A DNA stretch of 62,494 nucleotides, filler included, from Sanchytrium tribonematis (lineage: Eukaryota), in NCBI GenBank assembly GCA_018985235.1. It is 16 parts of 16 records of this genome, joined end to end, with 100 filler letters (N's around TTAATTAATTAA, not from the genome) between each part and the next. Parts side by side here need not be neighbours in the genome. Positions count along the whole stretch, not along the records: positions 28,238 to 48,568 come from JADGIG010000099.1; 15 more parts are not named here. One strand, 5' to 3'. A program made the translations under genes and the position numbers. The number at the start of each line of letters is the position of its first letter. Position 1 is the first letter of the stretch. The notes under the pieces are model-generated. The model was not told the DNA's origin, made no database searches, and worked only from the letters and a program-made list of their open reading frames with translations. Of this stretch, positions 3,018-62,494 are shown in pieces.

Positions 3018-3040
3018 GTGCGCTATTCATTTGTAATACA

Positions 3041-9313: not shown

Positions 9314-11248
9314 TTAGAAAGTGTAATCTGCTGAAAAAGGCTTTTTTGGCTTTCTTTTGTGTTGCTCTAATGAATAATTACCATAAAAAAGACCAATTAA
9401 TAGCAATACATCCACAGATATTTTAATAATTAATCTAAATGTCAATTTAAATTCAAAACATACTGGATTTGGAAATTTTGTGAGATTTTTGGCAGTGATG
9501 CTTTTGGTGGCCATTTCACTGAACGAAGATTCTGTATCGTTGTATATAATACTACTAGCTACAATCAAACTAGATGCTTTGTAAAATACACGCGTCACAA
9601 CTAAATTAATAAAAATAACTTGATCTGGCATCTGTGGTTGGAAATTCCAATTTATCGGGTAGATATGACAAGTAGTACTTTTTACACATGCTATAATTAG
9701 CTACATATGAGCTATTTAGCAAGGGATTAAAGGATAAATCACATTTTGTTAATAAACTCGTGTTTTGCAATTGGACTTCTAAAATAGATGTATTTCCTAA
9801 TACTAATGATGTTGGTTTTTGCAAAATGACCTTGTCGTTGAAGTAATTGCCCTCGTTGGCTAGATCCCCCAATACGACATCATTTAAAGAAGCAGGAAAT
9901 GGGGGCAATGGACCTGTTAGAAAATTCCCTTGAATTCGCAATTGTTGTAAATTGGGTAGTAAAGTAGGAAGTTTGCCTGTCATATTACATCCAACTAATT
10001 GAAGCACTTTTAATGTGCTAGGTAATTGGGGGATCGTTTGATTATAGTTTGCTTTTTTAAATATTAAAGTCTCTAATCCCTCTGAGAATATTGGCAATTT
10101 GCCTCCAATATATGGGCCTTCAATGCTAAGATATTTCACATTCCCTGGAATATAGTCTGGTATTTTTGCTGTTTGATTATAATTGCCAAAAATGTACAAT
10201 GTTTCTAAAGTTGAAGGAATATCTGCAATTGAAAATGCAAACCCGTCTACAGTCTGTAATATATCCCATCCGTTAATATCTATTTTAGTCACATTTAATC
10301 CTGTGCAATCAATATATCTACTACTTTCACAGCAATGCGCATCCCTTACAAAATCACTTTGAATTCCCATTTTTTGAAACATATTCTCAACCAATTTGCA
10401 TGCGCCCAGGGATGGCGGAATCGAATATTTTTGAATTTCTGATTTGCATTTTGTTAAATTGACCAAATTGGCTACTGAAATATTGTTTAGTGAAACATCA
10501 CAAGATCGAATCACACTCGAATTTGTTGTCACAACTTTCTCAATCAGATTATTTCTCAAATTGAATTCAATATATGCTGAAGGACCAATATTTTTCAAAT
10601 ATAATTGAGTCCAAGTATTTCCCTTTAATTCATTTTCCACACTATCAAATTCATTGTCAGCAGCTGAAAACATTTGTAGCTGAATTAAATTGGGAATGGT
10701 GCCATTTAGTTGATTCGTGTCTAGGGCTAAATTGATTAGAGTATTAGGTAATTTGCCAAATATGGGGCCAGTAAACAAATTGTTCGAAAGGTAAAGATTT
10801 TGTAAATTTGTAAAGCCTGACAAGTCCGGAATGTTTCCTTTAATATTATTATTTTCTAAACTCAAATACTGTAGTGTATCCGGTAGTAATGTGGTGTTGA
10901 TGCTGCCATTGAGATTTAAATACCGCAACTCGATATACGTGATTCTATTGGCTTTACATCTGGCATGACCCTTTAAATTATCGCAACAATCACTTTTTTT
11001 CAATATATAGTTGAAGCTCTCCGGGGCAGTTAGATGCATGTTTAATTGTCTTAAAAATAAATAAAATTTGGGTCAATCGATGGAAGGTAGAGATTTAAAT
11101 GATAAATTACATTTCGAGGTCAAAGCAACATCCGCCTGCATTTCTGGATCAAAATAATTATAGATAGTATTGCAATCTTTTATCCCATTACTGTTTGCCA
11201 CAAACAACCAATCAAATTCATTGTCAGTGAGATACAAGGCTGTTATAT
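9314..11248 (-). CDS. Multi-module Cys-capped LRR membrane protein, 5' partial; 19-nt intron at 9601-9619; in-frame TGA at 11073-11075
   Basis: The frame is open from the contig edge to the TGA, then runs through two cap+LRR modules. The intron joins ...DARS-I-VTRVFY... to an exon with a Ser/Thr stalk, a TM segment and a basic tail. Confidence 0.75.
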
Positions 11249-13228: not shown

Positions 13229-14066
13229 CTACAATTTTACTGCCTCCATTTTTATCTCATTTGAAAGTTGCAGAAACGTGAGGCAATTGGGACTTTTGTT
13301 CTTGATGACAGATCCAGGATTTACACAAATGGTGAAATCTAATTTTTTGGCAAAAGGACTCAAGACACTTGGAACTATTAGCACGTGAGGAGTAACGGTC
13401 CAATTAATGGGCCTACATAACGGAAGATCTTCAGGAATGGGTACAGATGGCATCGGTCCGTTACTTAAAACAAATTCACAAAGCGTTGAGATTCTATCTT
13501 TCACATTTGTCTTGGCTACTTTTTGGTATGAATTGGATATGTATTTCACTGAGTCACAGCCGGTGCATCCAAATATAATATCGTCAATTGAAAAGGTACA
13601 TGGGCTAGGGAAAAAATGAAAATTTGGCTACATTACTTTATATTACCAGTCCTTGAAAATGATCGTTCAAATCAATCAACTTTGGAGAAGGATAAGTACA
13701 CAAGCTTGATATTGCCTCAAATGGGCTCGACGTAATAATAAATTTTGTATTAGGAAGTACTTCAGAAAGTTTTGCAAGTTTGGATATAAAGATATTATAC
13801 ATATCATCCGGAAACAATTCCAACTCTTTAAGGGAATCTTCATGAACAAATGGGCCATTAAAAATAGCATAATCGGGTTTCTTCGATGCAATTTCTTGAA
13901 TAGCTGAGTCAAAAGCAATCAATCCTCGAGAGTTTCCAAATGGGCCAGAAGCAATGGAAACTATATTATTCGTTGGCGACTCGGGAAAATTTTTGTACAT
14001 GGGAATCTTGGGATGTAAAATACTTTTGACTTGAAAAGCTCTTCCAGAAGTGTTTTTGCCAATTAA
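13229..14066 (-). CDS. POL12: DNA polymerase alpha subunit B, 5' partial; 19-nt intron at 13628-13646
   Basis: IASGPF and NGPFV; splicing restores PNFHFFPSPCTFSIDDIIFGCT; PHVLIVPS..PF and VNPG follow. Confidence 0.85.
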
Positions 14067-15381: not shown

Positions 15382-16171
15382 ATGGAAGACTCGAAAAGAA
15401 CATTTGTTCATAAAATATTTAGTATTTTGGATAATGAGCGATTTAAAGAGATCATAAGCTGGAATGAATTTGGAAATGCATTCACTGTATTTTACCCAGA
15501 AGCTTTTAGTCAAAAAGTTTTACCCTTGTTCTTTAAACACGCCAATTTTTCAAGCTTTGTTCGACAACTAAATTTATATGGGTTCAAGAAAGTTAAAAAC
15601 CGATCATCTATATCGTTTATGCATGATAGATTTTTGCGTGGTAGAACAGATCTTTTAGAAACAATCAAACGAAAAACACCAGAAATCGAATTAAAACCTG
15701 AAGATAAAAGAGACATTCGATTGCTAGAGATGTACTCGCAGTTGCAAGATCAAAAACAAATCATAAAGGAACTCAAAGAAGATTTATTTAAGGAAAAAGA
15801 AAGAAGACATCAGATAAAAGTGAAGTATGACGAACTTTTACAAATTTGCAAAAATAGTAGTCTTCCTTGTAATTTATATTGATTTAGTAACTCCAGATTT
15901 CGAGGTTACTGATCTATTACCTAAACCAGTTCAACACCAAAGTCGCAATTCTTGGTCAAGCGAATTAAATAGCTCTATCATCTCGCCTTTAAGTAGCACG
16001 AGCAACATAACTGCCGCTAATTTAAGCCTCTTCTACAACAACATGAACGACTTCCTAAATACACCGCCAGTATCTCCTGAACGATTACGTCGCTCTGAAT
16101 TATTAAACCCGAATATACAAATATCGGTGGAGCAAAGTTCATTTGACTACCAAAATGACCAATTTGAATAA
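15382..16171 (+). CDS. HSF-type transcription factor; 19-nt intron at 15869-15887
   Basis: HSF DNA-binding domain (IISWNEFG, FFKHANFSSFVRQLNLYGFKK) plus coiled coil; the intron joins it to the 15827-16171 frame. Confidence 0.9.
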
Positions 16172-21131: not shown

Positions 21132-21330
21132 AATAAAATCTTTTATTTTACTTCTTGTATATATACTTTGAAACTTCTGCACAAATCCCTTAAGCTTTGG
21201 AGAAGAAAACAGCTGGCGAAACGTTAGATGTGCAGCATCTCAAATGGCTTTAGTGGCTAGGAATTTTCTATGGTATAAAGTTTTGATTGGAAGATCGACA
21301 TTTAAATGACTCTCACGGTTAAGTTTTAAA

Positions 21331-22513: not shown

Positions 22514-22613
22514 NNNNNNNNNNNNNNNNNNNNNNNNNNNNNNNNNNNNNNNNNNNNTTAATTAATTAANNNNNNNNNNNNNNNNNNNNNNNNNNNNNNN
22601 NNNNNNNNNNNNN

Positions 22614-23463
22614 TTGATGTAAATACATTTGCAGTGATTCCAAACCATTTTTGTCCAATTACCACAAATTCACCATTTTCAATCACTTGTGAAATGCCAT
22701 CACATTCCAAATGCACAATAATATCCACTAATTCATCACCAGGTTGATATAATTGACAATCTACATGATATGTTTCATGATTCATGGTGAATTCATAAAT
22801 TAATAAATTGGGTTTAAATTGATTCCATTCAAATGTACCTGGTACAAATGGACTATTGGCTGGAATAGCATTCTGTAAAGACATTTGAGTGCCATAGGGA
22901 AGATGGGATGACTTTACTAGTGCTAATAAGATGGATTGATCATTTACAGTAAAAATAGAGTTAATAGTATCTCCATTTAATTGTAATTTGGTGTAAGTGC
23001 GTGGGGATGCATCAGATTGAAAATGGCACGAGAAATCAATATTGGATGGATTCGAATATTGTGTTTTAATGGAATTTCCACACTTTAATTGATAATCTGG
23101 ATGAAATTGCCAATTTAATTCAGTCAATTCTAAATGCGTCTCGGATTGATCTAAATCAAATGTATTGACATTGTGAGTGAATTCATCTGATATTTTCAAT
23201 TTTAAATCATGTGTGATTGTAAATTGCAAATGAATATCAGGTGATTGATCAGATGTTTTGGGTGATTTGGGTGCTTTGACACGCCAATGGGTAGTTGATC
23301 GAGTCACATGGATGGATTTTAATGTGAATACATCAATATGATTCTGATGAATGATTTGGCAGTTGGTATTTAATGATTTGATGAAATCAGGGAGATTGGT
23401 GCATTCAAAACATGCATTGACGATGAATTGGAACAACATTTGATGAAATGGGATGCATGGCAT
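22614..23463 (-). CDS. Hypothetical protein, possibly secreted, 3' partial
   Basis: Long open frame; possible start at MLFQFIVNA. Confidence 0.55.
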
Positions 23464-23858: not shown

Positions 23859-23971
23859 ACTTTATTATAAATGACATTTTTGGCAATAATTAGCCATGAT
23901 TTGGCGATCATAGTCCAATCGAATAAATTTGAATATTTTTTAAATTGGTCTGAAACATTTATAAAAAATTA

Positions 23972-25328
23972 ATGCTCTTAATTTTTACTTTATTAGTGAA
24001 TGCTATTAATCCGGATTGTCCGGATGTTGTTAATTTGGCAATTGGGTTGAATATGCCCACAGTTTTACCAGATATTTTTGAATTATTAAAAAAAGATTGC
24101 TGCTCCACATATTCTTCTACAACAAGTTATTTATTACCAAATTGTGATCAAAATAACGTGATATCAATAAGATGGGAAAAATTAGATTTAGATGGATTTG
24201 TGAATGAAACTGCTATTCCCTCAAAATTAAAATCTCTATCGTTGTCTAAAAATAGAATTGTGGGAACTTTGCCCAGTCAATTGCCTAAAACATTGCGTAG
24301 TCTTACTTTGTCATGGAATAATCTGCAAGGCACACTCCCGTTATATCAAGATGGCCTTGAAATAATGGAAATTTCACATAATCATATCACCAAGATAATT
24401 GGACTACCAAACACACTGGTGTTTATGATGGCATATGATTGTAGTATTGGTGGAAATTTACCATTATTACCAAATACTCTGTTGGAAGTAGACTTGCAAT
24501 ATAATTTATTTACTGGCAATATCTCTAATTTACCTAGCCAATTAAAATGGCTGGGATTTGATAGGAATCTTTTGACAGGCGTGATTCCCCAAATACTTCC
24601 TTCTACACTTAATTGGATTTCTATGAACTCCAATTTACTATCAGGTGATTTAAATCGAGATTGGCCATTTTCATTACAAAATCTTGGAGTAGAAAACAAT
24701 TTATTATCTGGATATCTTCCATCATTTACAGCTGCTTTATATGCATTACAAGTGTCTGATAATCAATTTAAAGGAGAATTACCTTTTTATGAAGCTGTCA
24801 CGATTTTATATGCAAATAATAATAATTTGACAGGTTGCTTACCACCCATGTACAGTATATCCGATATAGACATCAGCAATAATCATTTTAATGGCAAATT
24901 GCACTTGTTTAGGCCTGTAACATTTGTGATTGCAAATAATAATATTTCTTTGGTAAATTTAGAAAATACAGCTGGTTTAACGAAATGTGATGTATCTAAT
25001 AATCCACTAATGAATACGATACCAGGCTGCATCGCAAATAATATGAGAAATGCAACTCAAGTGGATCCGTGTTTGATCCAGACTGTTCAAACCAGTGAGT
25101 CAGAAATGGCTCAAATTTCTTCAGCAACTTCTTCGGAAACAATAGCAACTAGTGCCCCGCATTCTACAGATGCTGAAGCATATTTTATTCTGACCAGTAC
25201 ACAGAATGAAGTAGATTTGACTGTAAGTTCCACTGATTCTTATGAATTAAACATGGCCTCTAGCACGATTGACTCTGTCAAATCCATTATAATGCAGTCA
25301 AAAACTACTGTATCTATAACACCATCGC
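23972..25328 (+). CDS. Cys-capped LRR surface protein with Ser/Thr stalk, 3' partial
   Basis: Signal MLLIFTLLVNA, cap DCP..LNM..DCC..C, LxLxxNxLxGxLP repeats, C-cap LTKCDVSNNPL, S/T-rich stalk. Confidence 0.85.
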
Positions 25329-25428
25329 NNNNNNNNNNNNNNNNNNNNNNNNNNNNNNNNNNNNNNNNNNNNTTAATTAATTAANNNNNNNNNNNNNNNN
25401 NNNNNNNNNNNNNNNNNNNNNNNNNNNN

Positions 25429-26737
25429 GTCAATTCCAGCATGAGATTATAGTCAGGTGTATAATCAATGAAATACGACTTGATTTCTTGGTCTAAATTA
25501 ATAAAATTGTACCTTCTTGCCATTGTTGAAAATTTGGAGATTTCATAAATCCGTGTAACAAATGCAATTTGAGCACATTGTAAGCATCCTGCTGTGTCTC
25601 ATCGAAGAATGTTTGATCTTTCTGCACAATCTCATAAGTTGGTACTGGCACGTCCTCAATAATATCTGGTCTGACATTTAATCTCAGAGGCGAGTTCTTG
25701 CGTAAATACATTTTATGGAGGTATCTCGCGAATAATAACCATGTCTCAGGTGGTGATTCTACAAATATCTCTACTTCTAACCAGAATAACAAGTACTCAA
25801 TGGAATACTCCTTATAACAATATTCTGCAAAATATTTAAATCCATTTTTAGATCTGAGAATCTTTTTTAAAGTCATATCGTCTTGGTCTTGGGTCTGTCT
25901 AAATCTTTCTAATGCTATTAACATGCCAGAATGAGTTAATTCTTCTTCATTTTCCTCTACTTGTTTCTCAGAGTGAATAATAATAATCGTGTCATTGTTA
26001 TTCAAGACATCTCCTACTAGCGTATCAAAGTGTATAGGCTGTTCTTGAGAATTTAACACCAGTCTAACCATCAATGGACTCACTTGTTTGCCTTCTAATG
26101 CCTCCAGTTGAAAATTAAAATCAGCTTCAACCAATTTTGCTAAATAATCAATAGATTGGGTGGTATCTACTGTAATTTTGAATTGATATTGCAATAATTG
26201 AATGTTGACTGAAATATTGATGAATTCTACCATTGGATTTCTTTTATTTCTCTTGTTTTCGGCCAAAAATACGCGCAAATCTTTGTCCAATGGGGAAGCA
26301 GTGATTTGGTCTTCTAATTTTGGAGCTTGTTGTTGGTACATTTGTTGTTGTAAAGCATACGCATAGCTATTATAAGGATTCGGATACGCAGGTTGACTAT
26401 AATTTCCAAAGTAATACGCTGGAATGGGCGGGTGAAGCTGCTGGGGAGGGAGAATTGGCCCATAATATTGCATATAATTGTAGTAATCATCTTCATTACG
26501 TGATTCTCGATAGGATTCCCTTTGATAACCTCCCATTTGCTGGTTCTGCTGCTGTTGAGGGATCATTTGAGGTGGAATTTGATTCGGAAGAAGTTGGTTC
26601 ATGGGAGGGGGATAAAAAGTAGATGACAAAGAGCTGACTCTTCTGCGATCTAAAAGTGGTCTTTGTGAACTATTTACGCTGTTTAAACTGCCATGACTTT
26701 GAAAATCAAATGAAGTCTGTCTTCGTCTCTGGTCCAT
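25429..26737 (-). CDS. RGS-domain protein, 3' partial; probable 20-nt intron at 25493-25512
   Basis: ILRSKNGFKYFAEYCYKEYSIEYLLFWLEVE and YLRKNSPLRLNV are typical RGS motifs; splicing keeps the frame open to the contig edge. Confidence 0.8.
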
Positions 26738-27290: not shown

Positions 27291-27445
27291 ATCGAGTATT
27301 CGAAAAATGGATGAGATTGTACTATGTTTTATTTATCTTTGCATTTTGCCTACTCCAATAGCTGACCTTTTTAGAATTTGGCCATTTCAGTGACGAAATT
27401 GCCTAAAGATTCTTTTTGTGCTCTTGTAATTTTAATTTAGACAGT

Positions 27446-29959: not shown

Positions 29960-30544
29960 ATGGCTGTTGATTTACCATTTAAGCAACATCAAAAAAAAGC
30001 TGGAAGATCTGCTCCAGTCAGCAAAAATCCATATTTGAAACTACTTCATCAGTTGTACGCATATTTGGGACGAAAAACAGATTCCAAATTTAACAAGACC
30101 ATTGAAAAGAGACTTTGCATGTCCCGAACATCTAGACCACCTGTATCTTTATCTTTTATTAAGCAGCAATTGGCAAAGAAAAATGATGAAGAACTCAAAA
30201 ACAAGATCGTTGTTGTTGTTGGTACAATTACAAACGACGAGAGATTATTGGACTCTGAGGTTCCTAAAGTCAAAATCTGCGCATTGAGATTTACAAAATC
30301 TGCGAAAGACCGTATTATTTCGAAAGGTGGAGAAGTTCTTACTTTTGACCAGTTGGCTTTAAAAGCACCATTAGGCAAGCAAACAATTTTATTAAGAGGA
30401 GAGCGAACATCTAGAGAAGTATATCGTCACTTCGGTCGTGCACCGGGCAGACCAAGATCAAATACTAAACCTTACGTCAGATCTAAGGGACGTAAATTCG
30501 AAAGAGCTAGAGGTAGACGTAGATCTCGAGGTTACAAGAACTAA
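29960..30544 (+). CDS. RPL18: 60S ribosomal protein eL18
   Basis: [40 protein letters not shown]; start at 29960. Confidence 0.98.
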
Positions 30545-30610: not shown

Positions 30611-31627
30611 ATGACATCTGTTTGCACCGAGGCTGGTAATTTTGTTGAGACTCCACCGTGCACAGAATTATTGCTACCCAATGTAAAAGAATTGACAAGA
30701 ATCTATTTGGGAAGATACCCAAATCGGGAACCTGCAATTCAAATACAAGCATTTAACAACAAAGTTTCTAGAGAACATGCAGTCGTTTCAATTGACAAAA
30801 TGCTGATAAAGTTAACAATCAAATGCCTCTCAAAAAATGGTCTTTTTATTAACAACAATTTTGTCGATCAAAATGAAGTTGCAGTTTTTAAAATTGAAGA
30901 TAGCATCTTCATTGGGAATACTCTATATAAGTTCTGTATAAGCGATAAGTTTAAAAACTTTAAGCCAATAAGTGCCTGTGTTATGCCAACCAGCGATGAC
31001 AATTTGGTTTCTAATTATGCTAAATCAATTGCCCCTTTAACTTCCTCTGCGCCTCAGTTGGATCTTAGCTCTGAAATGCTAGATATTGTGGGTATTGAGG
31101 ATAAAGAAAATTTACAGTTTTACAAGCGTAACCTGGATAAAAGTGAAAAATTTTGTGATGACAAGGCGAAAAAAAAGTTGGTTCAATTTCAGGAAAACTT
31201 GCCCACAGATTTGCCTTCAAACGTCAATATTTCAGAAGTTGAAGAATTGGTGCCAGAAAATCTAGTAGATTTGGTTATTGAGTCAATTGCTTTATCAGGT
31301 CAAAGTCATTTGAGTGTTAGCAGAATCCAGGAAGCTATTGAACTAAAATACCCATTCCAGAATTTAAAATTCCATGTTAAAAATGTTCTTAAAAAGCATG
31401 AATGCTTCGAATGTAGGTCAGATTCTGGGGTAACCTCAAAAGTTTGGACTTATGTGCCAAATCTTGATTTTGATGTGGACCGCGGTATTCTTTACTCTCA
31501 TTGCATGTCTCAAATGCCACAAAGGAGATCGAAAATGGGAATCAAGCGATATTATTTTCAACCAGTGTCTCTTCCAAATGAGAAAAAGAAGAAAAGACTG
31601 AATGATGACGAGGAGTTCGCACAATAA
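30611..31627 (+). CDS. FHA-domain protein, Tos4/Plm2-like
   Basis: FHA motifs LGR, VSREHA and SKNG; C-terminal YVPNLDFDVDR...RRSKMGIKRYYF resembles Tos4/Plm2. Confidence 0.65.
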   Translation: MTSVCTEAGNFVETPPCTELLLPNVKELTRIYLGRYPNREPAIQIQAFNNKVSREHAVVSIDKMLIKLTIKCLSKNGLFINNNFVDQNEVAVFKIEDSIFIGNTLYKFCISDKFKNFKPISACVMPTSDDNLVSNYAKSIAPLTSSAPQLDLSSEMLDIVGIEDKENLQFYKRNLDKSEKFCDDKAKKKLVQFQENLPTDLPSNVNISEVEELVPENLVDLVIESIALSGQSHLSVSRIQEAIELKYPFQNLKFHVKNVLKKHECFECRSDSGVTSKVWTYVPNLDFDVDRGILYSHCMSQMPQRRSKMGIKRYYFQPVSLPNEKKKKRLNDDEEFAQ

Positions 31628-32055: not shown

Positions 32056-33084
32056 TTACTTTTTTAGAAAAAAACTTTTTAAAAATTCCATATCCATATC
32101 ATTTGAAGTCAACACTTTCGCAAACGCTTTTGCAATTCTAATGCTTTCCGACGGAAATCTTTCCGATAGAAAATTGATGTGGGATACAATAAGCTGGATA
32201 ATTTCTTGGTGAAACGGGTTAAGTGATGAGTAAATGTTCAAAGACATTCTCTTACTATTAAGCCATTCCTTTGGGATCACATCTTTATATTGTCTCAGAT
32301 AACCGAGAAAGGCGTCCGTAAATGCAATCGTGCAATTCTTTTCCAGAGTTTGGCCATAGATGAATTTAGAAAAAACCTCTTGTTGATTTTTACTACTTTT
32401 TCCACTGTATATGCGACTAATGTTTGACTTAGATACAAGCTGTTCCGTAGCTTCTAGAGAACAATGTACTATGTTGATTGATGCCTCTATATTTTTAAAC
32501 CATGGTTCACTGAGGATGTTTGCTGGAATTGAAAGTATACTATTTTCAACCTTTGCTGGACTAGGAGGTCTTTCAGTATAGACTGGAGATTCTGGCTGAG
32601 AATCAATGACGGGCTCTTCTATTTCAAGACCAAAAGAAGAAACTGCACGTATACTTTTTGTAGGAGACTCTATAATTTTATCAAGAGTTGGAGGATATTT
32701 GGGAACAGAAAGATTAACACTTGCATTTGGCTTTAAATCATCAGTTTCCATAGAAAAATTATTTGTTTTGTCTGCCTCACTTATGATAATACTTGGAGAC
32801 ACAATAATGCGAGATCCTACATTTGGAACACTCTTCTGGCGCTTGTAGCTTAAGATTTTTTCCCGCATTTTGCTCCCATATTTCTGCAAATCAGATTTCT
32901 CCTGGTCATAGATGTTGACTGAATTTGATTTTTTAATAGGAGTTTTAATTTCTTGATTTTTATAGACTTTTTCAAGGTTATCAAAGTATATTTCTTTTGC
33001 TAATTGTAAATCGAGGTCAAACTTGCTGTCTCCTTTCAGTAGGGTTAATAATCTTTCTATGGAATCTAGAAGCTCAACGTCCAT
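32056..33084 (-). CDS. Hypothetical protein
   Basis: 342-aa ORF filling the gap between neighbouring genes. Confidence 0.6.
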   Translation of the reverse strand: MDVELLDSIERLLTLLKGDSKFDLDLQLAKEIYFDNLEKVYKNQEIKTPIKKSNSVNIYDQEKSDLQKYGSKMREKILSYKRQKSVPNVGSRIIVSPSIIISEADKTNNFSMETDDLKPNASVNLSVPKYPPTLDKIIESPTKSIRAVSSFGLEIEEPVIDSQPESPVYTERPPSPAKVENSILSIPANILSEPWFKNIEASINIVHCSLEATEQLVSKSNISRIYSGKSSKNQQEVFSKFIYGQTLEKNCTIAFTDAFLGYLRQYKDVIPKEWLNSKRMSLNIYSSLNPFHQEIIQLIVSHINFLSERFPSESIRIAKAFAKVLTSNDMDMEFLKSFFLKK

Positions 33085-33208: not shown

Positions 33209-34532
33209 ATGAATTTCGAGTCAGACGATCTTGATTTGACGTTTGATGCAGGAGAAAGGCCAAATTTTCCAAATTTTGGGCAATTGCCAACAACAAAGGA
33301 TCTTTATAGCTTAAATAATGTACATAAGGTCTTGAGGGATATTACCAAAGCAACTGTCACATCATCCATAGAGACTTTTTTAATTATTATGAAAGACGGG
33401 TTGGAGGAAGACTTGATTACCTTGTTAAAATGGTTTTCTTCTAAAAAATGTACGATATTTGTCGAAAGAAAATACAGAGATATTGTAAATGAGAAAGGAA
33501 TTGTATGCTTAATCAATTTTTATTCAGTTACACCCAATTGCGATCTAATTATTACACTTGGTGGTGATGGTACCGTTTTGTATTCTAGCTGGATGTATCA
33601 AAGAATTGTTCCACCTGTTATAGCATTTCACCTCGGGTCTTTGGGATTTTTGACGGTCTTTGACTTTGAGAAACATACTGAGATTTTAGATCGAATTTGG
33701 AAAGGCTCTGGGGTGAGAGTATCAATGCGAATGCGTTTGCAATGTCAAGTTCACAAACTGCAAACAACTAGAGAAGGTAGGATTGAGAAGAAGAAAAATG
33801 TTAAAAAAAGACGATCGGTGTCCGAGACATCGCGGTCACTTACATCCCTTAACTCAGACACAAATTCAGCTCGGGATTATATGGAAGTACCGCCTTCACC
33901 TTTACAATCATTGCGCCTTCTAGCACAAACATTACAAGGAAATGAAGATTATGACGAAGACACTTTACACGTTCTGAATGAAGTAGTCATTGACCGTGGG
34001 CCTTGCCCATTTTTAACGTCTTTGGAAGTATGGGGGGATGGCGCGCTGTTGACGATATGTCAGGCAGACGGACTAGTTATATCTACGCCTACTGGATCGA
34101 CTGCGTATAGTTTGAGTGCTGGTGGTAGTCTGTGTCATCCTGATGTCCATGCGATTTTGGTTACTCCAATTTGCCCTCATACTTTAAGGTAAATACTTTT
34201 TATGAAGTTTTAGGCCAATGATATTGCCAGAGTGCATGGAGCTCAAAATAAGGGTACCCTTGAATTCCAGAAACAATGCTTGGGCTTCATTTGATGGTAA
34301 ACACAGAATTGAATTACACAAGGGCGATTTCGTCACTATTAAAAATTCCCCATTTCCCTTTCCTACTGTGTCCAGTGAAAACACCACTGATGACTGGTTC
34401 AATAGCCTTCAGAGATGTCTTAAGTGGAACGAAAGAGTCATTCAGAAACCTTTGGATTCGGATAGTCGGAGGCTTGATAAACAGTCACGAAGATTATCTA
34501 CTATACCTTCGGAAAGCGAAAACTATCTTTAA
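33209..34532 (+). CDS. NAD kinase; 19-nt intron at 34189-34207
   Basis: LGGDGT, LNEVVIDRG, STPTGSTAYSLSAGG; splicing restores TPICPHTLSFRPMILP. Confidence 0.96.
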
Positions 34533-36614: not shown

Positions 36615-39240
36615 TTATTTTACAAAGAGCGATTTTAGATCTCCAAGATGCCACCTTGATTCTACTTCGTCATATTTAACCTTTATGTTTGATTCTCTCA
36701 AATGACTTAGTGTATATATTTCATTTTCCATCTTGTCGTTTCGAATGACCAGTTGGATGTGTTCCGTAAATGGCATTACATCCACTGGATAAAATCTCGA
36801 AATATATCTCAATTGGTTGAGCAGCTGTTTACATGACTCTAAGGTCCACGATAATTCCATCATCAAATCAGCAATAGAAATAGCTTTTGTTTCTAAATGA
36901 TATTTTAAGTCCATGTAAATCCAATCGGTAAGCTTATTCAAAAGTTCCAAATTATCAAACTTTCCCTTCTTAATTAAAAAGTGGTACCTTAATTTTAACA
37001 TCAAGATAATCATGCACCAATTCGCAAGAATAATGCTCAGAATACTGAATTTCCACCCCGAAACTGTTCGAATAGTCTAAAAGTATTTTCGATTGGTCGA
37101 TTTGTAATAGTTCCCAACCAAAATTTTGTTTAATTTCAAGCTGTTGTTGAAAAAGAAGATCCACATCATTTTCTTCTACGACTTTTAATGAAGTTATTTG
37201 CGAATTTAATCGGTCGATATCTTTTTTAACAGTTAAAATAATATCTTCTTGTCGAGATAATTCATATTTCGCATTCTCGATTGCGTTATTTAATTTAAGC
37301 ATTCGCTTTTCTCCACTATCAATGTCACCATCTAGCATGTTGATTTTCTCACTTACATCTTTTTCAAAATCATTGATATGTTGATAGTTTTGTGAACAAT
37401 TTTGAACCTGTTCTTTTAACTCTATTTCAAGCGATTCGATTTTGTTATCAAAGTCAATCTCTAGCTTACAGAAATAATCAATGAATGAATCTAATTTTAA
37501 CTTTGTTTCACTGAGTGACTCGATTTTATCTCGATATAACATCGTAATTGCATCAGCTCGTTTAATTTTTTGTTGAAGTTTGGAATCTGTAGCAATCATT
37601 TTACAAAAAGAGGTGGTGTTTTTAATCATCCCTTCCAAGTATTCCTTTTCCGATCTATCTGCGTTGTGATAATCTCTACACAAGTTCGAAGATGTAATTT
37701 CAGATTTGAGCTCTAGGAACTCCAAAGAAAGCGACTCGTACTTTTCAAGATAATTGACGCACTGTGGAATATTTAAATTTACGACGTCAGCATAAACTGC
37801 ACTTGAAATAACATCAACAGTCAATTTGGAACATGTAAATTCTTCCACCGTTGAGATTTCCATATTAACTTTATCCATAGGACCGTTTTCAAATATAAGT
37901 TCTGAGAGACTTTTTTCTACCAAAGAGTTATCTGACTCTAGTGGTATTTCATCATTTAACAGAGACTCGTCTTTAGGGGAAAGAATATTTCTAGGAACAT
38001 TTTTAGTGGGCGTCGAAATACTAGATTCGCTGTAAAAGCTGTTCGCTTCTATTTTTTTGAAAAAAGAGGAAGTATCAACAACGGGTTTTGGCACCGGCGG
38101 AATAAGATTTGTATCATCCAAAACAGATTTTTGTTCAATAGTTGTGTCAATCATTGAATTCAAGATACTCCCACCAGGCACAAAACTGGTCTCTAAAGGT
38201 CCACGTCTATTGTGCAATGCAACAATCTCATCCATATTGAATACCGATTTTGATTCTTGTTCTGTGATTTGAACGTCTTGGGGGAGTGTTTTAGTTAGCA
38301 GATTTGTTTCATCAAATAAAACAGAGGCATTCTCTTTCATAGGCAGAGATGATGCCGCGTTCTCTGATTTTAACAAATTGGTTGTCTCCATATCTGCATT
38401 AGACTTTGATGGCTGCTCATGTAAAATCTGAGTTTGTTCCATGAAGGAATCTAGTAAATCGTTTGATTTTGATTGGTTTTCGGCCAGCAATACCTGTGTC
38501 TCTTCCATAAGAGACTGATTTTGATTACGCAAATTTTCAGAGCTAAAAGGTTCTACTTTAGCAGAATTCAAAAGGGACAATTTGCATCTCATTGAATCAT
38601 GATTTTGCTCTTGTGTTGTTACTTCGTCAACTATTCCTTCCTCTGGCAACATATTAGTCTCGTTCATAAATTCACTATAATTATGAGTAGAGTCAGCAGC
38701 TTGATTAACTTGAGGAGAAAAAGTTAAAAGATCAACACTCTCTGCCTTATTTTCTAGCAACAAATTGGTATTTTCCATAAATTCTGAATTTGGGTCAATG
38801 TTTCCGAATGAAAAGAGCTGTTCATCAGTAACTTTAGTAGGTGTTTGGTAAATGGGTTTCCTTTCTATTGCAGACTTAAGTCCCGTAGGACTCTTTTTAG
38901 AAGGACTATCTTGAAAAGTCACTCGACGCTTCTTTTTTTTAAAAATGTTTGTGTTTTCGATAATATCCATGGCATGAGTAGTTGGATCAATCAAATCAGT
39001 CAAATCAGACTTAAGTAAATTTTCTTTTTCCAATATTTCCGGCTGTGAAGGTGACATTTTCAAAAAATGATTTCTTTTCAAATTGACAAGCTGAATATTT
39101 TGTAGCTCATTGGGCTTGGGCGAGAGTAGCTTCAATCGCTCATCGGAAGATTTAGCGGGTGTTTTGGGAGATTTTGTGGGTGATGGGGAAGAAGATCTTA
39201 ATTCTTTTCTTAGGGGAGATGATTGAAAAGTTTTTTCCAT
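36615..39240 (-). CDS. SPC105: Kinetochore protein KNL1/Spc105-like; 19-nt intron at 36969-36987
   Basis: PP1-binding RRVTF, repeated MExT-type motifs, coiled coil, RWD-like C-terminus joined by the intron. Confidence 0.7.
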
Positions 39241-39268
39241 TAGTTTGAAAAATTATTAAGGTATGTTT

Positions 39269-41895: not shown

Positions 41896-43036
41896 TGCGA
41901 TTTTAACTTTAAAAAATGGAATCAAGTTTGACGCGAAAAATTATGGAACTGAAGTCAAGAAACCATTATTAGGGGAGATTGTGTTCACAACCTCTCAAAC
42001 AGGATATGTTGAGAGTATGACGGATAAAAGCTACACCGGCCAAATTCTAGCTTTTTCAACTCCGTTAATTGGTAATTACGGAGTTCCAGACACCAGAAAA
42101 ACGGATAGATTCGGGCTACCGCTATTTGGTGAATCGTTCGACATTCACGCCAGTGCAATCGTGGTTCAAGACTACGCATTGAGATACTCTCATTTCAATG
42201 CAATTAAAAGCTTAGCAGAATGGTGCAAGGAACAAGCTGTGCCTTTATTGTCAGGAGTTGACATCCGCAGATTGATTCATGCTATTCGAGATGGAAATTC
42301 AATGGCTTCAGTCGGAAATGGCAAGTGTTACCAAATTGAACCTCAAAATCAAAAAAATTTGGTCAAAGGTGTTTCTACAAAGCAGTCCTACCATATCAAT
42401 CCTTCAGGTAAGTATAGAGTAGCCCTCTTGGACTTTGGTGCAAAAGTTGGCATATTGCGGGAACTTGTCAACCGAAATTGCGCCATTCATGTGTATCCAT
42501 GGGATACCGATTTGAGCACGGTTTTGCGATATCAAAGTTTTGACGGTATCTTTTTATCAAATGGACCCGGTGATCCTGCTGCCCTCGAAAAACCTATTAG
42601 CAATTTGAGAAAAACATTAGAATTTCTTCAAGTTAAAAATCCCAAAATGCCAGTATTTGGGATCTGCATGGGACATCAATTACTTTCTCACGCTCTGGGT
42701 TTACAAACTTACAAGTTGGGCTATGGAAATCGTGGTCACAATCAACCAGTGCAATGTAATGAAACAAAAAAATTATTTATTACTAGCCAAAATCATGGAT
42801 ACGCTGTCAATATTCCTGAAAATGGAACAATTAGCCATTTTGGGCATGTGTATCCATCGTTTACCAACCTTAATGACGGTAGTAACGAGGGAATCAAGCA
42901 CGTTCATTACCCTTGGAATTCAGTTCAATTTCATCCTGAGGCTGCCTCTGGTCCATATGATTGCAAAAATTATTTTGATCTCTTTGTTAGAAAAGCTGCA
43001 GTTTTCAAAAATTTTGGACAAATAGCTCGCATTTGA
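41819..43036 (+). CDS. CPA1: Carbamoyl-phosphate synthase small (glutaminase) subunit, arginine-specific
   Basis: GEIVFTT, PLIGNYG, LSNGPGDP, catalytic GICMGHQ, SQNHGYAV, QFHPEA; presequence-like N-terminus. Confidence 0.96.
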   Translation: MATIILMRKFATTTLMSKFTKPQHTDAILTLKNGIKFDAKNYGTEVKKPLLGEIVFTTSQTGYVESMTDKSYTGQILAFSTPLIGNYGVPDTRKTDRFGLPLFGESFDIHASAIVVQDYALRYSHFNAIKSLAEWCKEQAVPLLSGVDIRRLIHAIRDGNSMASVGNGKCYQIEPQNQKNLVKGVSTKQSYHINPSGKYRVALLDFGAKVGILRELVNRNCAIHVYPWDTDLSTVLRYQSFDGIFLSNGPGDPAALEKPISNLRKTLEFLQVKNPKMPVFGICMGHQLLSHALGLQTYKLGYGNRGHNQPVQCNETKKLFITSQNHGYAVNIPENGTISHFGHVYPSFTNLNDGSNEGIKHVHYPWNSVQFHPEAASGPYDCKNYFDLFVRKAAVFKNFGQIARI

Positions 43037-43126: not shown

Positions 43127-44138
43127 ATGTCAAGTGCCAATGCTTCTAGAGAAGAGTCATCTTCAGCCATGATTGACATTACTGAACTGGGAAAACATGG
43201 GATCAATGCTGCTGATATCGCAAAATTGAAAAATGCAGGAGTTTGCACAATTAAAGGTCTTCAAATGACAGCTAGAAAAAACTTGTTGAAAGTGAAAGGT
43301 CTTAGTGATACCAAAGTGGACAAAATGAAAGAAGCTGCAGGGAAAATCTGTAGCTCTGGATTTATGAGTGCTCAAGACCTCGAAAAACAGCGAGAGTCTG
43401 TTGTTAAAATATCAACTGGAAGTAAAGAATTTGACAAATTGCTTGGCGGTGGCATTGAAACCCAAAGCATCACTGAAGTGCATGGAGAATTCAGATGTGG
43501 TAAAACTCAGTTGGCTCACACTTTATGCGTTACTTGCCAGCTATCTACCGATGACCATCCTGGTGGAAAGGCAGCTGTAATAGATACAGAGGGCACATTT
43601 AGACCAGAGAAATTGAGAGCTATCGCGGAAAGATTTGAAATGGATCCAGATGAAGTCACTGAGAATGTTATTTATGCTCGAGCGTTCAATAGTGAGCACC
43701 AAATGGAATTGCTGACAGAATTAGCCGCTACATTCGCTCAAGACAAGACCTTTCGACTTCTAGTCGTAGATTCTATAATTGCATTATTTAGAACCGATTA
43801 TAGTGGAAGAGGTGAACTTGCCGACAGGCAACAGAAGCTCAATGGGTTCTTGGCCAACTTGCAAAGAATAGCGGAAGAATTTAATGTAGCTGTTTATATT
43901 ACAAACCAAATGATGAGCGACCCTGGTGGAATGAGTTTCGGTCCAGATAAAAAAGCTGTTGGCGGTCATGTCCTAGCACATGCTGCTGCCACTAGAATTG
44001 CCTTGAGAAAGGGTAGAGGAGATTCCAGAATGGCCAAAATGTAAATGATACTTATTTAGTGTAGACAGTCCAGATATGCCTGAAGCCGAAGCTACATATG
44101 GCCTGTCAGGTGCAGGTATAATTGATGCACAAGAGTAA
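43127..44138 (+). CDS. DMC1: Meiotic recombinase DMC1; 19-nt intron at 44041-44059
   Basis: GEFRCGKTQL and GGHVLAHA; splicing restores MAKIVDSPDMPEAEA, where DSPDMPE is DMC1-type rather than RAD51 DSPCLPE. Confidence 0.93.
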
Positions 44139-44168: not shown

Positions 44169-45090
44169 ATGTTAGAGGAAGATCAAGATCATACTTGTTT
44201 AGTTTGCCTAGAAGAGCTCACTGAATTATTTATACCATGCGATTGCAATTTTCCGATTTGCCAATTCTGCTGGAACCAAATATTAAACGAAGACGGAAGG
44301 TGTCCGAATTGTAGAAGGTCTTATGAAGCAAATAGATACAAAATTGAACCACTTCCCAAAAAGCTAAAAATACAACCAGAAAGAATGAAATTGCAAAATG
44401 TTCGAGTGCTACAGAAAAATTTGGTATATGTGAGTGGGTTTACAGGCGTTGTATCAGACAGCCTTCTTCAATCTCCACAATATTTCGGGCAGTTTGGACC
44501 AATTCACAAGATTGTTATCAATAGGAAACTTGGCCAAGTACCAAATTTACCAAATGACTCTATTGGGGTTTATATAACATTTGAAGGTGAAAAGGCAGCA
44601 CATTCAGCAATCGAGGCAGTTGATGGTAATTTAAATTTATAAAGGGAGTATGTGGCAGGGTCAAAGATTAAGAGCTAGGCATGGCACCACAAAGTACTGC
44701 ATTCATTTTTTAAAAAGTCAGCCATGTCAGAATACAGAATGTATGTATCTTCATAAATTGAGCGACGATCATCTTACAAAGGAAGATTTGGCTCAACTTA
44801 GCACTACTCAGACTAAGAAATATAGTTCACACAAAACCTTTGGCCCTCAGGCCGCGGATTTATCGTACCTCCTCAGGTCTTTCGCGGAACGCATAGAAGA
44901 TTTTCGGCTCAATCCCCCAAAGCAACAATTTTCAAATACAGGCCAATTGCCTCCAAGAGCTCCAAGTGTAAATATACAATTAGGTACTCCGAGTTTATGT
45001 CAAAGATGGATCAGTATGAATGCAGAGTTGTATCATGATGAAAAGAAATTCAACCCTTTCGCTGAGGAGAGTGCGTTATCATCGAAATAA
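44169..45090 (+). CDS. NOT4: CCR4-NOT E3 ligase NOT4 (RING-RRM-CCCH); 19-nt intron at 44626-44644
   Basis: C4C4 RING, NVRVLQKNLVYV, YFGQFG; splicing gives AVDGSMWQGQRLRARHGTTKYC. Confidence 0.93.
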
Positions 45091-45968: not shown

Positions 45969-47166
45969 ATGGAAAGATCTCTAATGAAATTCTTATTATT
46001 TCTTATAATTTTATTTGCCATAATATTGGGTATTTGGCTCTTCGGTCCATCCGGAATTAAAAGTAAGAACAAATTTATGCGAATTATAGGAAAAACTTAT
46101 CTTGGATTGGATTACATTTTTGGTAAAATTGCTATATTGTTTAATGCAATCACCCCAAATTGGATCAAAAACTGTTTTGGATATGTCGCCTTCCAAAGAC
46201 ATCCCATAATGCAAATTTTATTCGTTGTACTTTACGGCGCAGGGGCCTTAATTTTTATGTGGAAAGCCCATAATAGGCTTTATGTCGATGAGATTAATCG
46301 CTTGCATTATTATTTTGCACCTATCGTGGCCTATATCCAATTTTATATATTTTATTTGGCTTGCTATAGTGATCCTGGGATTATAACAAAAGATAATTGC
46401 CATGTGGCATTAAAACAATACCCTATTGACGAAATCATATTTTTCCATCAGGAATGTAAAACATGTTTATTTAAAAAGCCTGCAAGAAGCAAACACTGTA
46501 GTTTATGTAATGTGTGCATAGCTAAGTCTGACCACCATTGTCCTTGGCTAAATACTTGTGTTGGTCAAAATAACTTGAGATTTTTTTTTGCATTTTTGTA
46601 TTGGATGGTATTTTCCACATTTTATTGTTTTTATCTTATTTATTATTTATTTATGGTTGAAATGAAATCTCAAGGTTGGATTGACAATGTTTATTCTATT
46701 TGGGAATTGTTTGCAATATGGAAAGGCCCTATTGTTAATTTTACGTTTTTCCGAAATGGAAGTCCTAGCGGCACTATTAAACTGTCTGTTTTACAGTCAG
46801 TTCAAGTAATTTGCATTTATTTAGATCTATTCGCTGAATGATGGGTGGCTTGCTGTGCTTGGTTTGACTTGTATCGTGACCTCCATTGTTGTGCTATTAT
46901 TTACCACATACCATATATACCTGAACGTGGTGAAGGGAATGAGTTCCAATGAATACATGAAGTTCGACGATGTGATTTATTATATTAACAACCATAAGAT
47001 ATATTATAATGGGAAAAATTTGATCTCTGTGCAGAGTGATGGACAGAGGCCTGTTGACAAGAATGTGTTCCTTAATTATCCTCCAAACATTTATAACCAA
47101 GGCATTATTAAGAACATTCTGCTCATTTTGTTCCCACCAAACTTGAACAAAAAAATAAAAAATTGA
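45969..47166 (+). CDS. DHHC palmitoyltransferase (Swf1/ZDHHC4-like); 19-nt intron at 46806-46824
   Basis: SDPGII and KPARSKHC...DHHCPWLNTCVG; the intron joins the last TM, SSNE and NIYNQG. Confidence 0.92.
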
Positions 47167-47173
47167 CATTTTC

Positions 47174-48668: not shown

Positions 48669-50372
48669 CTATCAACAGCAGTGTTGGTATTCGCGCTTAT
48701 CAAAATTTTAAACTCATCCGCCTGCGAATGCTGTTCATCAATCGCAGTTTGAATTGTATTATATAGTAACATTATAGATATTGCGATGATGAAAGATTTT
48801 CCACACCCAAAATACCCTATATGAAATTGAGTTACCATGACAAAGAGTTACCGGCAAATCAGTGTGTTCAAAGACTGAGCGAGCAATTGTATGAACTAAG
48901 GTTTCTTGATCGAAATTTAAGTGCTTTCCAGTTTCGCAAATTATAAGTTCCAATTCAGTTTCCCAATCATATTTCCAATTTAAATTCAAATCGGAGTTGT
49001 AAAGTTTCTGGCTTAGGTAATCAAAAATTGGAAGTTGCAGATCTAGTAATTGGTCTAAAGTATTGATGACGTTAACGTCAAAATGAAATCCTAATTGCAA
49101 TGCGCAAACAGGGTATTTGCTGCTTTGGGACAGCCAATTATCCAAAACATCACTATTTTTTGTTCCAAGACTATTGATAACTATATCAGTATATTTTTGA
49201 TTTTTTCCTGGAAAAACTCGATTTGTAGCTACCACAAAAGCACAAGATTGAAAGTTTTCAGACTTTGACATTGCCCATATCTCATTTATAGAAATGGAAA
49301 GACTTTTCGGTACTCTCAATACAATCTCTGCCCCATCATTCTCGGATTTGCAATATACATAGCAATTGTTATACAAGAATTTAGAATCTTTATCTTTTTT
49401 AGATTGAGAAAGTTGATTAAATTGAAGATTGGAAGAAATAAGCACATGTTCAACTATTGCTTTTTTTAAAGATGCAAAATAATCTTCCGAATTTTTAAAT
49501 ATATCTTCTATACAATGTCGCCTACTTCTAGTTATTTTCTTATCTAAAGCTAAATCATCTAACGACTTTATCTCGAATTTGGGGCGTTTTGAAGCTTTGC
49601 TTGACTGTGGAAGATGACGTTTGGTCATTTGTTTCTGCTCTATATTACTTTCCAACAAGGAAAGCACATCTTCATTTTCTTTCTCTAATAAGGACAAGAC
49701 TTCGTTTTCAGCCTTCTCTGCCTTTAATGATACAATTTTGTTGTCATGCAACAAGATTCTTTCAGTAGCTGCATTTTTAGAATTCTTTTTAAAGGGAGTT
49801 TTAAATGGCTTAAATGGTCTTACCTCCACTTTCTTCGGGGAAGGTAGAATTTCTATTTCTTTGAATTTTTTGGGATCGTCTTCCGATTTGTACACTTGAT
49901 CAATATATACATGGTATTTAAATTTAATCGTAAATTCGCTTCCAACTTCCAAAACTTTCGATCCTATCAAATCTCGAGTAAGTTTTTTCTTTTCCTCATC
50001 ATATAAGACAATGTAGTCACCGTTGATAGATATATATCCATCAGAATAATTTTTGACTTTTTTATGTAATTGGGGAGAGTACAAAGCAACAAAATCAAAA
50101 TTGAAAGAAGCTTCATCTTGATCTATTGGCATTGGCTCAACTGCTGGTTGCCCAGGGTGATTAAATGTATCTATAAGTACCCTTTCTTCTGACCGAACAT
50201 GATAAAAACATAAATTAGCCAAATTTTCAATATCACCAGTTATTTTTCCTTCCGCAATCCAATCTCCATTCTGATCTTCTAATTTGTATTTCCCATGAGC
50301 TTTTACAGTGATGAGGCCTTCTTTCCAAACACTTCTTCCCTTTTTGGATTTAAATTGTGCCGAGTATTTCAT
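48669..50372 (-). CDS. ZGRF1: ZGRF1/Mte1-like protein (DUF2439 + SF1 helicase), 3' partial; 19-nt intron at 48817-48835
   Basis: FVALYSPQLHKKVKNYSDG (DUF2439); splicing restores Walker A LCHGYFGCGKS followed by ILISANTNTAVD. Confidence 0.8.
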
Positions 50373-53794: not shown

Positions 53795-54268
53795 TTTGTT
53801 TTAGAGGGAAATTTATGTTTAAAAAGAAATTGAATTTTAGACAACACATTTGAATTTACTAGACCAAAAGGGAATTGGCTGAAACTACCATTTATGAATT
53901 AAAATATGCACACTGTGATGATGATTGCTGTCAGCAATTGTGCGCTCAATAGATGAATTTTGATTTTTCTCCAATTGAAACATTCTAAATTCATTCACTA
54001 GTTTATTTATTGCATTTTATATTCCATTTACACTTTAATATACCAAATTCGCTCTACATTATCATAAATTACTAAGAGATTGCATGTATCTATACCAATA
54101 ATATCCCAAAATCACTCCACAACTTACTAAATAAATGGAAGAACCAACCAAATAGAATTTAAGATTCANNNNNNNNNNNNNNNNNNNNNNNNNNNNNNNN
54201 NNNNNNNNNNNNTTAATTAATTAANNNNNNNNNNNNNNNNNNNNNNNNNNNNNNNNNNNNNNNNNNNN

Positions 54269-60993: not shown

Positions 60994-62494
60994 TTATTGC
61001 TTTTGGAAGAATTGCCACAACATTTTCGGCTGTTTATTCTTATAAGCAGCATATCCAATGGCAATTACTGCCCCAATAAGTGCCATGTATGTCAATTGTT
61101 TCTTAAAAGTCGTTTCAAAAGATTGTCGCTTTATATTTCTAAATCAGCATAAAATTACGGTTGCATGGCCATGGCTATCATTACGTAAAACACATCTGCT
61201 AAATAATCTTTGGTGCAACTAATATGAAGTGGTTTCTCCAATCCATACGTCTTTGTAAACATATCTGGCTGCATTTCACATTTCTGTGGCACATTATCTA
61301 AATCTGACTTGTTTGCAATAAATAAACATGGATAATCTGTTAAATATTGCGTATATAGATTTGCGATGAAGCTAAATGAATTAGAATCTGAGGAATCATA
61401 AATTAAACAAATTACATCAGATCCCTCTAAAACATGCTTATTCTCACTCATAAACACATCATTCGTGTATTTACTGCCATATTCTTGCAATATCAAGTAT
61501 TTTTCAGTCCCCTTGTACTCTACAGTATTAATAACAGATTGGACATTTGAAGGAGAATATTTGCTAAATTGGGTTTGTGGTTTGGTAAACATGTGTAATA
61601 AGCTAGATTTTCCACTACCAGCAGCACCCAAAACCAATATTCTAAACACCGTGCGTTGTTTTCTTTGTTTTAATTTGTCTTTTAAAAATAAACATTTTAA
61701 ACCATTTAGCGCATAAGATTTGGCAAGACTGGATTGATAATCATATTGACCAAATACTTGTGATGTAGAAATGGCTGTATTGCTACTTAAATTGGTGATA
61801 GATTTGTTATTTAAATCTGTTTCAAATGTAATTTGATTTGGACCATCAAATCCCAAATAATTGAGATATTCGAGTAGTTTAGATGGATTCAGACTGGCTA
61901 ATTTGTGGAATTCGGCAAGGAATTGTTGTAAAGTGCAATTATCTGTAATTAATGGATTTGGACACACTTGAAATAAATCTTGTAAATCAGCCAATTCTAA
62001 CATGCCATCTCTATCTAGATCATATTTAAGGAATAAATCAGTTAGAAATGAAATGCCTTTGGGTGATAATTCAGTATAATCACAATTAGGGATGGGAGGA
62101 TGTAAATATTCATCCCTGAGAAATAATTCATTAGAATATCCGAATTTCCTGAGTATAATCCATGTCGTTTCAACTCTACCACGCTGTATAAATAGCTTAT
62201 TTAAATATAAGAATCCATCTAATGTCACTGTTTCATTTTGTAAATATTTTGAATTATATTCAGAAATGGCATCTTTAATGCCCTGTAATTCTAATTTCTG
62301 TAGTGGATTACCAAACACCTTTTCTTGAAAGTAGTTCAGATCCTCATCTGATAGAAATCCGTCTTTATTTGAGTTCACTAGAGTGAAAATGCGAATTAAA
62401 GCGTCTCTACAATCTGGCTTTAATTGATGAGATTTATGGTCATATAAGACTTGTGTGGGATATAATACTGCTTTTTGTGCAAAATAGAAGCATT
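60994..62494 (-). CDS. GEM1: Mitochondrial Rho GTPase Miro/Gem1, 5' partial; 20-nt intron at 61139-61158
   Basis: Two EF-hands, QRGRVETTWIILRKFGY, second GTPase GAAGSGKS; splicing restores the C-terminal TM anchor. Confidence 0.93.

Follow-up and report, generated by a model that had tools for sequence, protein, structure and literature searches.

Genes of the fungus Sanchytrium tribonematis are interrupted by inserts of 19 or 20 nucleotides (nt) that, judged from their sequence, are very likely spliceosomal introns. We consider it probable, moreover, that they are introns of the U2 type, in which U2 would base-pair from position -11 to -5 (counted from the intron's 3' end) around a predicted branch adenine at -6. 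Branching at this adenine would form a lariat loop of only 14-15 nt and leave a tail of 5 nt. Introns of this kind, ultra-short and with an anchored branch, are already known; it is the sanchytrid lineage that is new. Three features set the present case apart: these fungal introns are as short as 19 nt, a heptamer complementary to U2 is visible in them, and every one of the 11 falls within the 3' half of the visible coding sequence.

Results

The window and its source

The window, that is, the whole stretch of 62,494 nt analysed here, was assembled from pieces of 16 contigs, with spacers of N between them; without the filler it amounts to 60,994 bases with a GC content of 34.4%, the figure for the S. 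tribonematis genome being 34.64% (Table 1 of PMC8371127). Eukaryotic genes that use the standard code are densely packed across it. Intergenic spaces are very short, often less than 50 nt, and convergent genes nearly touch (for example at 32046/32056 and 34532/34534).

The Dmc1 protein encoded in the window is 82-84% identical to sanchytrid proteins, including that of Amoeboradix gromovi, and at most 67% identical to the others among the 120 matches listed; in a tree of 32 rows, the four sanchytrid sequences make up one side of a 100/100 branch. The same sanchytrids are the nearest relatives of the window's NAD kinase (NADK), and EukProt contains the proteins of the window itself. By these protein comparisons, the source of the window is a sanchytrid fungus, in a clade with A. 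gromovi. A scan of metagenomes with the Dmc1 alignment returned four loci of 57-64% identity, none of them sanchytrid-like; three are apparently intron-free over the matched part and one has longer breaks.

Eleven inserts with a common 3' end

A sequence-only reading of this DNA had proposed 11 introns ending T-N-A-T-N-W-A-G. Each of its 11 end-octamers could be matched to one insert in the window, and the example it gave in the NAD kinase gene is indeed a 19-nt GT..AG insert (Table 1). All 11 inserts have GT..AG ends; nine measure 19 nt and two 20 nt.

The same set emerges from a motif-blind scan for GT..AG segments of 12-45 nt located near the stop of an open reading frame (ORF) and leading into a frame downstream, with minimum lengths of 130 and 20 codons, respectively, for the two frames. 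On 27 ORFs the scan found 70 candidates, of which 14 are 19-20 nt long. T-N-A-T is present in 11 of the 14, exactly those named by the earlier reading, so that the choice of the set was not circular. Seven decoy boundary pairs produced no candidate with both the length and the motif (0 of 472). The remaining three candidates of 19-20 nt are located close to the ends of genes for ribosomal proteins, and the Pfam domains of these are complete without splicing. When the 585 GT..AG 19- and 20-mers were scored with a position-blind weight matrix, all 11 introns ranked within the top 12. Leave-one-out scoring placed 0-8 unlisted candidates above the held-out intron, which marks the motif as an imperfect classifier. 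The highest-ranking unlisted segment, a candidate twelfth intron, has an upstream frame of only 31 codons to the contig edge and no Pfam match.

Although the sample is small (11 introns in 61 kb), the invariance claimed for T(-8), A(-6) and T(-5) holds throughout (11/11), and shuffling of the interiors never generated three or more invariant columns (0 of 200,000). The proposed W at -3 is borne out (T in eight, A in three), as is the GTA start in ten of the 11, the sole GTT start being that of the insert at 9601-9619. The polypyrimidine tract is absent, as had been stated, because just 3 nt separate A(-6) from the AG. A stays at -6 in both 20-nt introns, and no AG occurs between it and the AG used in any of the 11. 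Donors are GTAATT-like. Their +5 position, usually a G in fungal donors, is never G (T 6, A 3, C 2); this is indistinguishable from the expectation of interior composition (p=0.58) and shows only that +5G is not required. The interiors contain 7% C. In the 19-mers, the donor (+1 to +6) and the branch region (+9 to +15) lie two bases apart. Retention of any of the 11 shifts the reading frame, with an in-frame stop in nine.

Several look-alikes were set aside. Segments at 30143-30163 (RPL18), 19349-19369 (glutathione synthase) and 44311-44328 (Not4) are in-frame, and their excision would remove coding residues that are presumably conserved. Those at 1174-1193 and 23151-23169 show the strict end motif, yet each sits within a long open frame and would break it on removal; those at 15165-15183 and 57717-57736 are antisense to genes. 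Nineteen candidates came out of a scan of the window for short first exons, and a Y-N-A-Y core was present in none of them. The end motif is also fitted by a 15-nt segment, GTA..TAATTTAG, at 27426-27440 (+), past the RPS20 stop and adjoining the stop of a histone H2B gene on the opposite strand.

Support for the junctions

Homology fixes the junctions of four inserts (NADK, Dmc1, Not4 and Miro); two have partial support, and five are defined by reading frame only.

Table 1. Predicted introns of the window, the NAD kinase exons and one further candidate.
Feature	Positions	Strand	Length (nt)	Phase	Predicted branch A	Support
NAD kinase exon 1	33209..34188	+				Pfam NAD_kinase + NAD_kinase_C 1-71
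NAD kinase intron	34189..34207	+	19	2	34202	NAD_kinase_C gapless 71/72
NAD kinase exon 2	34208..34532	+				NAD_kinase_C 72-124
Dmc1 intron	44041..44059	+	19	2	44054	Pfam Rad51 221/222
Not4 intron	44626..44644	+	19	1	44639	homolog alignment
Miro/Gem1 GTPase intron	61139..61158	-	20	2	61144	homolog alignment
ZGRF1-like helicase intron	48817..48835	-	19	1	48822	partial
DNA polymerase alpha subunit B intron	13628..13646	-	19	0	13633	partial
LRR protein intron	9601..9619	-	19	1	9606	frame only, 484 + 94 codons
HSF-type factor intron	15869..15887	+	19	1	15882	frame only, 197 + 93 codons
RGS-domain protein intron	25493..25512	-	20	1	25498	frame only
Coiled-coil ORF intron	36969..36987	-	19	0	36974	frame only, 755 + 117 codons
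DHHC palmitoyltransferase intron	46806..46824	+	19	0	46819	frame, 280 + 113 codons
Candidate twelfth intron, absent from the earlier list	54054..54072	-	19			top unlisted of 585 in matrix

Sanchytrid homologs of NADK, 66-73% identical, stop where exon 1 stops, three related sanchytrid NADKs reading on into an insert at the window's intron site; exon 2 aligns with solved NAD kinases from its first full codon (E 3e-19). The chosen boundaries were the best of 55 GT/GC..AG pairs for Dmc1 against 40 homologs (226.9, next 205.7, unspliced 150.9) and the best of 64 for Not4 against one homolog, P0125 (224, next 194, unspliced 94). For Miro they were the best of 27 against 40 homologs by a narrow margin (56.2 vs 50.7), and splicing restores a hydrophobic C-terminal tail that can be aligned with two of the five homologs displayed.

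Splicing of the ZGRF1-like gene yields a Walker-A-like G-x-x-G-x-G-K-S; its exon 2 matches Pfam AAA_11 27-66 at E 0.0016, below the cut-off, and the helicase had no PDB match. Exon 2 of polymerase alpha subunit B begins at Pfam position 116, without a start codon, and exon 1 gave no Pfam or PDB match. The DHHC profile ends at 88 of 133 within exon 1; the palmitoyltransferase junction is counted among those defined by frame. The weakest of the 11 is the RGS-domain intron, which leads from 414 codons into a frame open to the contig edge. The coiled-coil gene (36618-39252), which encodes 870 residues when spliced, shows a weak match to the kinetochore protein Spc7 (E 0.02), and its product is possibly Spc105/KNL1.

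One sequencing run, X1, was listed as containing the stretch; it is DNA and gives no information on expression. Five of the 11 inserts could be compared with it, including those in NADK and in the coiled-coil ORF, both spanned by contig record 4. The X1 contigs bridge all five without a gap and contain no joined form, which speaks against assembly indels at these sites, though X1 may itself be the source of the window.

Truncated proteins of related sanchytrids

The published sanchytrid proteomes were obtained by running TransDecoder on genomic contigs, without splicing (PMC8371127), so that their proteins are cut at introns (EukProt P0001, P0126, P0121 and P0129); the numbers of genes and the gene losses called for the phylum may have to be worked out again with a model that allows for introns. 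Among related sanchytrids, three NADK and two Dmc1 proteins break off at the window's intron sites, and the A. gromovi Dmc1 does so ten codons downstream of the window's Dmc1 site. For each of these six read-through tails we enumerated all the intron lengths compatible with it; two tails end too early and four are informative. All four place A at -6, with T or Y at position -8 and Y at position -5, an agreement at three positions with a chance probability of about 2e-4 given the intron composition of the window, three of the four presuming that the intron's TAG served as the stop (TAA would permit longer introns).

Tail P0128 gives an intron of 19 nt ending T-Y-A-T-H-T-A-G, and P0002 one of 19 (or 21) nt whose core is identical. 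For P0127 the solution is 20 nt with A(-6), 14 further letters fitting the shifted second exon; a second solution, of 34 nt and without A(-6), accounts for none of the exon letters. The A. gromovi tail, P0121, gives 23 nt ending T-N-A-C-N-T-A-G, with C at -5. As deduced from these protein ends, the tails support A(-6) independently of the window.

Position and number of introns

Measured along the visible coding sequence, all 11 introns fall between 0.51 and 0.95, within the 3' half, and a scan blind to position revealed no 5' introns. The bias has p=0.008 when calculated for the seven complete genes only, the four genes cut by contig edges blurring it. A 5' bias is the pattern in Stentor and in intron-poor genomes, Fabrea being a reported 3' exception. 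About 11 in 55 genes carry an intron, and extrapolation from 61 kb to 11.2 Mb gives approximately 2,000 introns (1,000-3,600).

A predicted branch site at -6

From -11 to -5 the 11 introns show T in seven, A in seven, a pyrimidine in ten, T in 11, any base, A in 11 and T in 11. The consensus, TATTNAT, is TACTAAC with both C's replaced by T. The earlier remark that the introns contain no TACTAAC is therefore literally true but misleading, since an AT-drifted form of it occupies these positions. GUAGUA is the branch-pairing motif of U2 (PMC9505925) and is strictly retained in nearly all eukaryotes surveyed (PMC13685798). Pairing with it is possible at 53 of 66 positions when A(-6) is bulged, the eight other registers reaching 17-41, as scored on the canonical motif with G-U wobbles allowed; the sanchytrid U2 may differ, and an Rfam search of the window gave no snRNA match. 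Wobble pairing to U2 comes cheap in T-rich sequence. The conditional shuffle takes this T-richness into account: when the invariant positions are held fixed, the other four (-11, -10, -9 and -7) pair in 31 of 44 cases, against a shuffle mean of 21 (p=0.002).

The proposal that A(-6) is the branch nucleotide is thus well supported at the level of sequence: no other interior A is invariant (in the other registers, 0-7 of the 11 introns have an A), it sits in a T-N-A-Y core, and it provides the best U2 register. As TATTNAT pairs best with A(-6) bulged, ordinary U2-type branching squeezed into 19 nt is the most likely interpretation.

The inserts do not resemble the other intron classes considered. 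U12-type introns have the donor consensus RTATCCTT and the branch consensus CCTTAAC; the donors and the low C content described above are unlike these. Introns removed by Ire1 and tRNA ligase have stem-loop boundaries and not GT-AG ends; here the ends are GT..AG, and the inserts folded alone reach only 0 to -0.9 kcal/mol.

Discussion

Alternative interpretations

One could envision that the inserts are spliceosomal introns in which T-N-A-T-N-W-A-G is an acceptor motif read by proteins, the branch being variable or elsewhere. The U2AF35- and U2AF65-type proteins listed for A. gromovi have no pyrimidine tract to bind, and the TTTCAG of Caenorhabditis elegans provides a precedent for an extended acceptor without a fixed branch (PMC2483917). 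However, such a motif would leave aside the fact that the only invariant interior A coincides with the best register for U2 pairing and that the four flexible positions follow U2 complementarity. The A. gromovi tail, moreover, has the canonical branch-site base, C, at -5. On balance, we regard this interpretation as unlikely. It is also worth considering that the branch does lie at A(-6) but that U2 has co-evolved (for example by a G to A change opposite -5), making T(-5) a lineage-specific Watson-Crick signal. The occurrence of T(-5) in all 11 introns, together with the co-evolved snRNA on record for Entamoeba, is consistent with this idea. Yet the intron composition would by itself leave position -5 without any C in 11 introns 27% of the time, the C(-5) of A. 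gromovi runs counter to such a signal, and GUAGUA is unchanged in nearly all the eukaryotes surveyed (PMC13685798); a change in U2 thus seems to us very improbable.

An origin outside splicing by the spliceosome, whether through assembly errors, pseudogene lesions, excision at the DNA level or introns of the tRNA-ligase/Ire1 type, draws some plausibility from the fact that the sanchytrid genomes were produced by whole-genome amplification (PMC8371127). We consider it extremely unlikely, given that the NADK and Dmc1 sites carry an interruption in relatives as well (66-84% identity), that every insert has GT..AG ends and is practically unfolded, that terminal repeats are mostly absent (slide of 0-3 nt, with one of 7), and that the X1 contigs, which may be the source of the window, bridge five of the 11 inserts gaplessly.

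A model for U2-type splicing within 19 nt

For U2-type branching at A(-6), we count two steps as established, namely that removal of the GT..AG inserts restores conserved proteins and that the U2 motif is complementary to TATTNAT if G-U wobbles are admitted. The remaining steps are predicted. The weak GTAATT-like donor would be read by U1 and then by U6, G+1 would be attacked by A(-6), and the first AG, at a fixed and near-minimal distance past the branch, would become the 3' splice site. With the branch-to-AG distance fixed, extra length could be accommodated only 5' of the branch. Genome shrinkage may have trimmed the introns until the donor and branch regions nearly touched, with two spare bases in the 19-mer, and this two-base gap might represent a functional floor.

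Which components would carry out these steps can be gauged at the level of annotation, from the published eggNOG tables. That of A. gromovi (supplement of PMC8371127) lists Prp8, Brr2, SNRNP40, SF3B1, an SF3B4-type RRM protein and U1-70K, as well as U2AF35, a U2AF65-type RRM protein, the branchpoint-bridging protein and Dbr1; U1-70K and Dbr1 are present among the S. tribonematis rows, of which there are at least 171. The branchpoint-bridging protein of A. gromovi is represented by two ORFs on one contig, possibly an effect of truncation at an intron. Among the A. gromovi rows listed, Slu7 and Prp18 were not found by name, nor Slu7, Prp18 and Smu1 by identifiers; as the sheet covers about half of the proteome, this is a lead and not an absence. 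The need for Slu7 is said, in the title of one study, to depend on the distance from branch to acceptor, and loss of Slu7 and Prp18 would therefore fit. A broader scheme, which we find doubtful and offer tentatively, would have some 2,000 introns of 19-20 nt, nearly all located in the 3' half of genes and the shortest in Fungi, spliced by a machinery that has kept U1, U2AF and Dbr1 and dropped the factors that confer tolerance of distance, Slu7, Prp18 and Smu1, with the acceptor hard-wired 5 bases past the branch A. If this were true, the spliceosome would have its structural minimum at a -6 branch, and ciliates, a yeast and the sanchytrids would have arrived there independently.

Relation to other short or anchored introns

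The closest analogies are with Stentor, to whose introns the earlier reading had attributed, correctly, a conserved A at -6: the putative branch A is base 10 in introns of 15 nt and base 11 in those of 16 nt (PMC9505925; PMC13685798). Like those of Stentor and other heterotrichs, the sanchytrid introns start with GTA, are AU-rich, lack a pyrimidine tract, and have a putative branch A at -6 with a 5-nt tail (PMC9505925; PMC13685798); the commonest Stentor intron also ends T-N-A-T-N-W-A-G (PMC9505925), and the share of intron-bearing genes, 18% in Stentor, is similar to that in the window. As in the Stentor type, length is below approximately 25 nt and A is at -6 regardless of length. In contrast, Stentor introns measure 15-16 nt, are mostly multiples of three, have a branch region that is weak, and are biased towards the 5' side (PMC9505925; PMC13685798), whereas the sanchytrid introns measure 19-20 nt (23 inferred once), are not multiples of three, carry the U2-complementary heptamer and occupy the 3' half.

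Yarrowia lipolytica, Trichomonas and Giardia share with sanchytrids the scarcity of introns, the lack of a pyrimidine tract and a fixed branch-to-AG distance (PMC2483917). Unlike the sanchytrid introns of 19 nt with their degenerate motif, those of Yarrowia are long (median 204 nt) and have a strict ACTAAC (PMC2483917). The earlier reading had called the likeness to Stentor a striking convergence; the geometry is indeed shared, but it is not unique, since the ACTAAC-AC-AG of Yarrowia also places the branch A at -6, a position that looks like a recurrent end point. The CTAAYTT motif of Encephalitozoon cuniculi directly precedes the AG, giving A(-6). This organism, like the sanchytrids a reduced fungal-related parasite with GT-AG introns and with CTAAYTT as its branch motif, has some 37 introns of 22-76 nt with a strict GTAAGT donor and a strongly reduced spliceosome in which U1 snRNA was not found (PMC3629993; PMC2483917), whereas U1-70K is listed for sanchytrids. 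The sanchytrid introns are shorter and, by extrapolation, number about 2,000.

Ultra-short GT-AG introns of narrow size range, with donors reduced down to GTA, are also known from other lineages, mostly parasites or reduced genomes: 16-17 nt in Mikrocytos (PMC10245619), 18-21 nt in the Bigelowiella nucleomorph (PMC6009652), and 20-27 nt in myxozoans and dicyemids, with myxozoan medians of 22-27 nt (PMC13644364). The nucleomorph introns have no discernible branch A (PMC6009652), in contrast to the fixed A(-6) of sanchytrids, and in myxozoans weak A's drift away from the AG as length increases (PMC13644364), whereas the sanchytrid A is anchored to the 3' end.

Significance

Among openly accessible papers we found no literature on sanchytrid introns. 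The word "intron" occurs once each in the sanchytrid genome paper and in the TPPP paper, both times in the reference list; the supplements of the genome paper may mention introns. Lengths of 19-20 nt would make these the shortest introns that we have found reported for any fungus; 19 nt is less than the 22-nt minimum of E. cuniculi (PMC3629993) and less than the median, also 22 nt, of the shortest introns in animals (PMC13644364).

Introns of less than 25 nt pose a puzzle for a spliceosome of several megadaltons. Splicing in human cells already fails when the distance from donor to branch falls below about 50 nt (PMC11291888); the corresponding sanchytrid distance would be 14. The sanchytrids would provide a second lineage with the geometry of Stentor. 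As fungi, sister to Blastocladiomycota, they are far closer to yeast, so that the problem can be addressed by comparison with the spliceosomes that have been studied best.

Other features of the window

The Rad51-family gene at 43127-44138 is the meiosis-specific Dmc1 and is intact after splicing; a BRCA2 OB1 gene lies at 5631-7448. The presence of the two suggests that sanchytrids undergo meiosis. Five LRR genes lie within the 61 kb (9317-11072, 21310-22566, 23954-25381, 47159-48613 and 54225-55877), some with hydrophobic N- or C-terminal stretches, and look like an expanded surface-protein family of an algal parasite. The X1 contigs contain second versions of the sequence at 31081-31144, 32474-32529, 38446-38707 and 42335-42413, at about half depth and with a divergence of several percent, which may reflect a heterozygous diploid or two strains.
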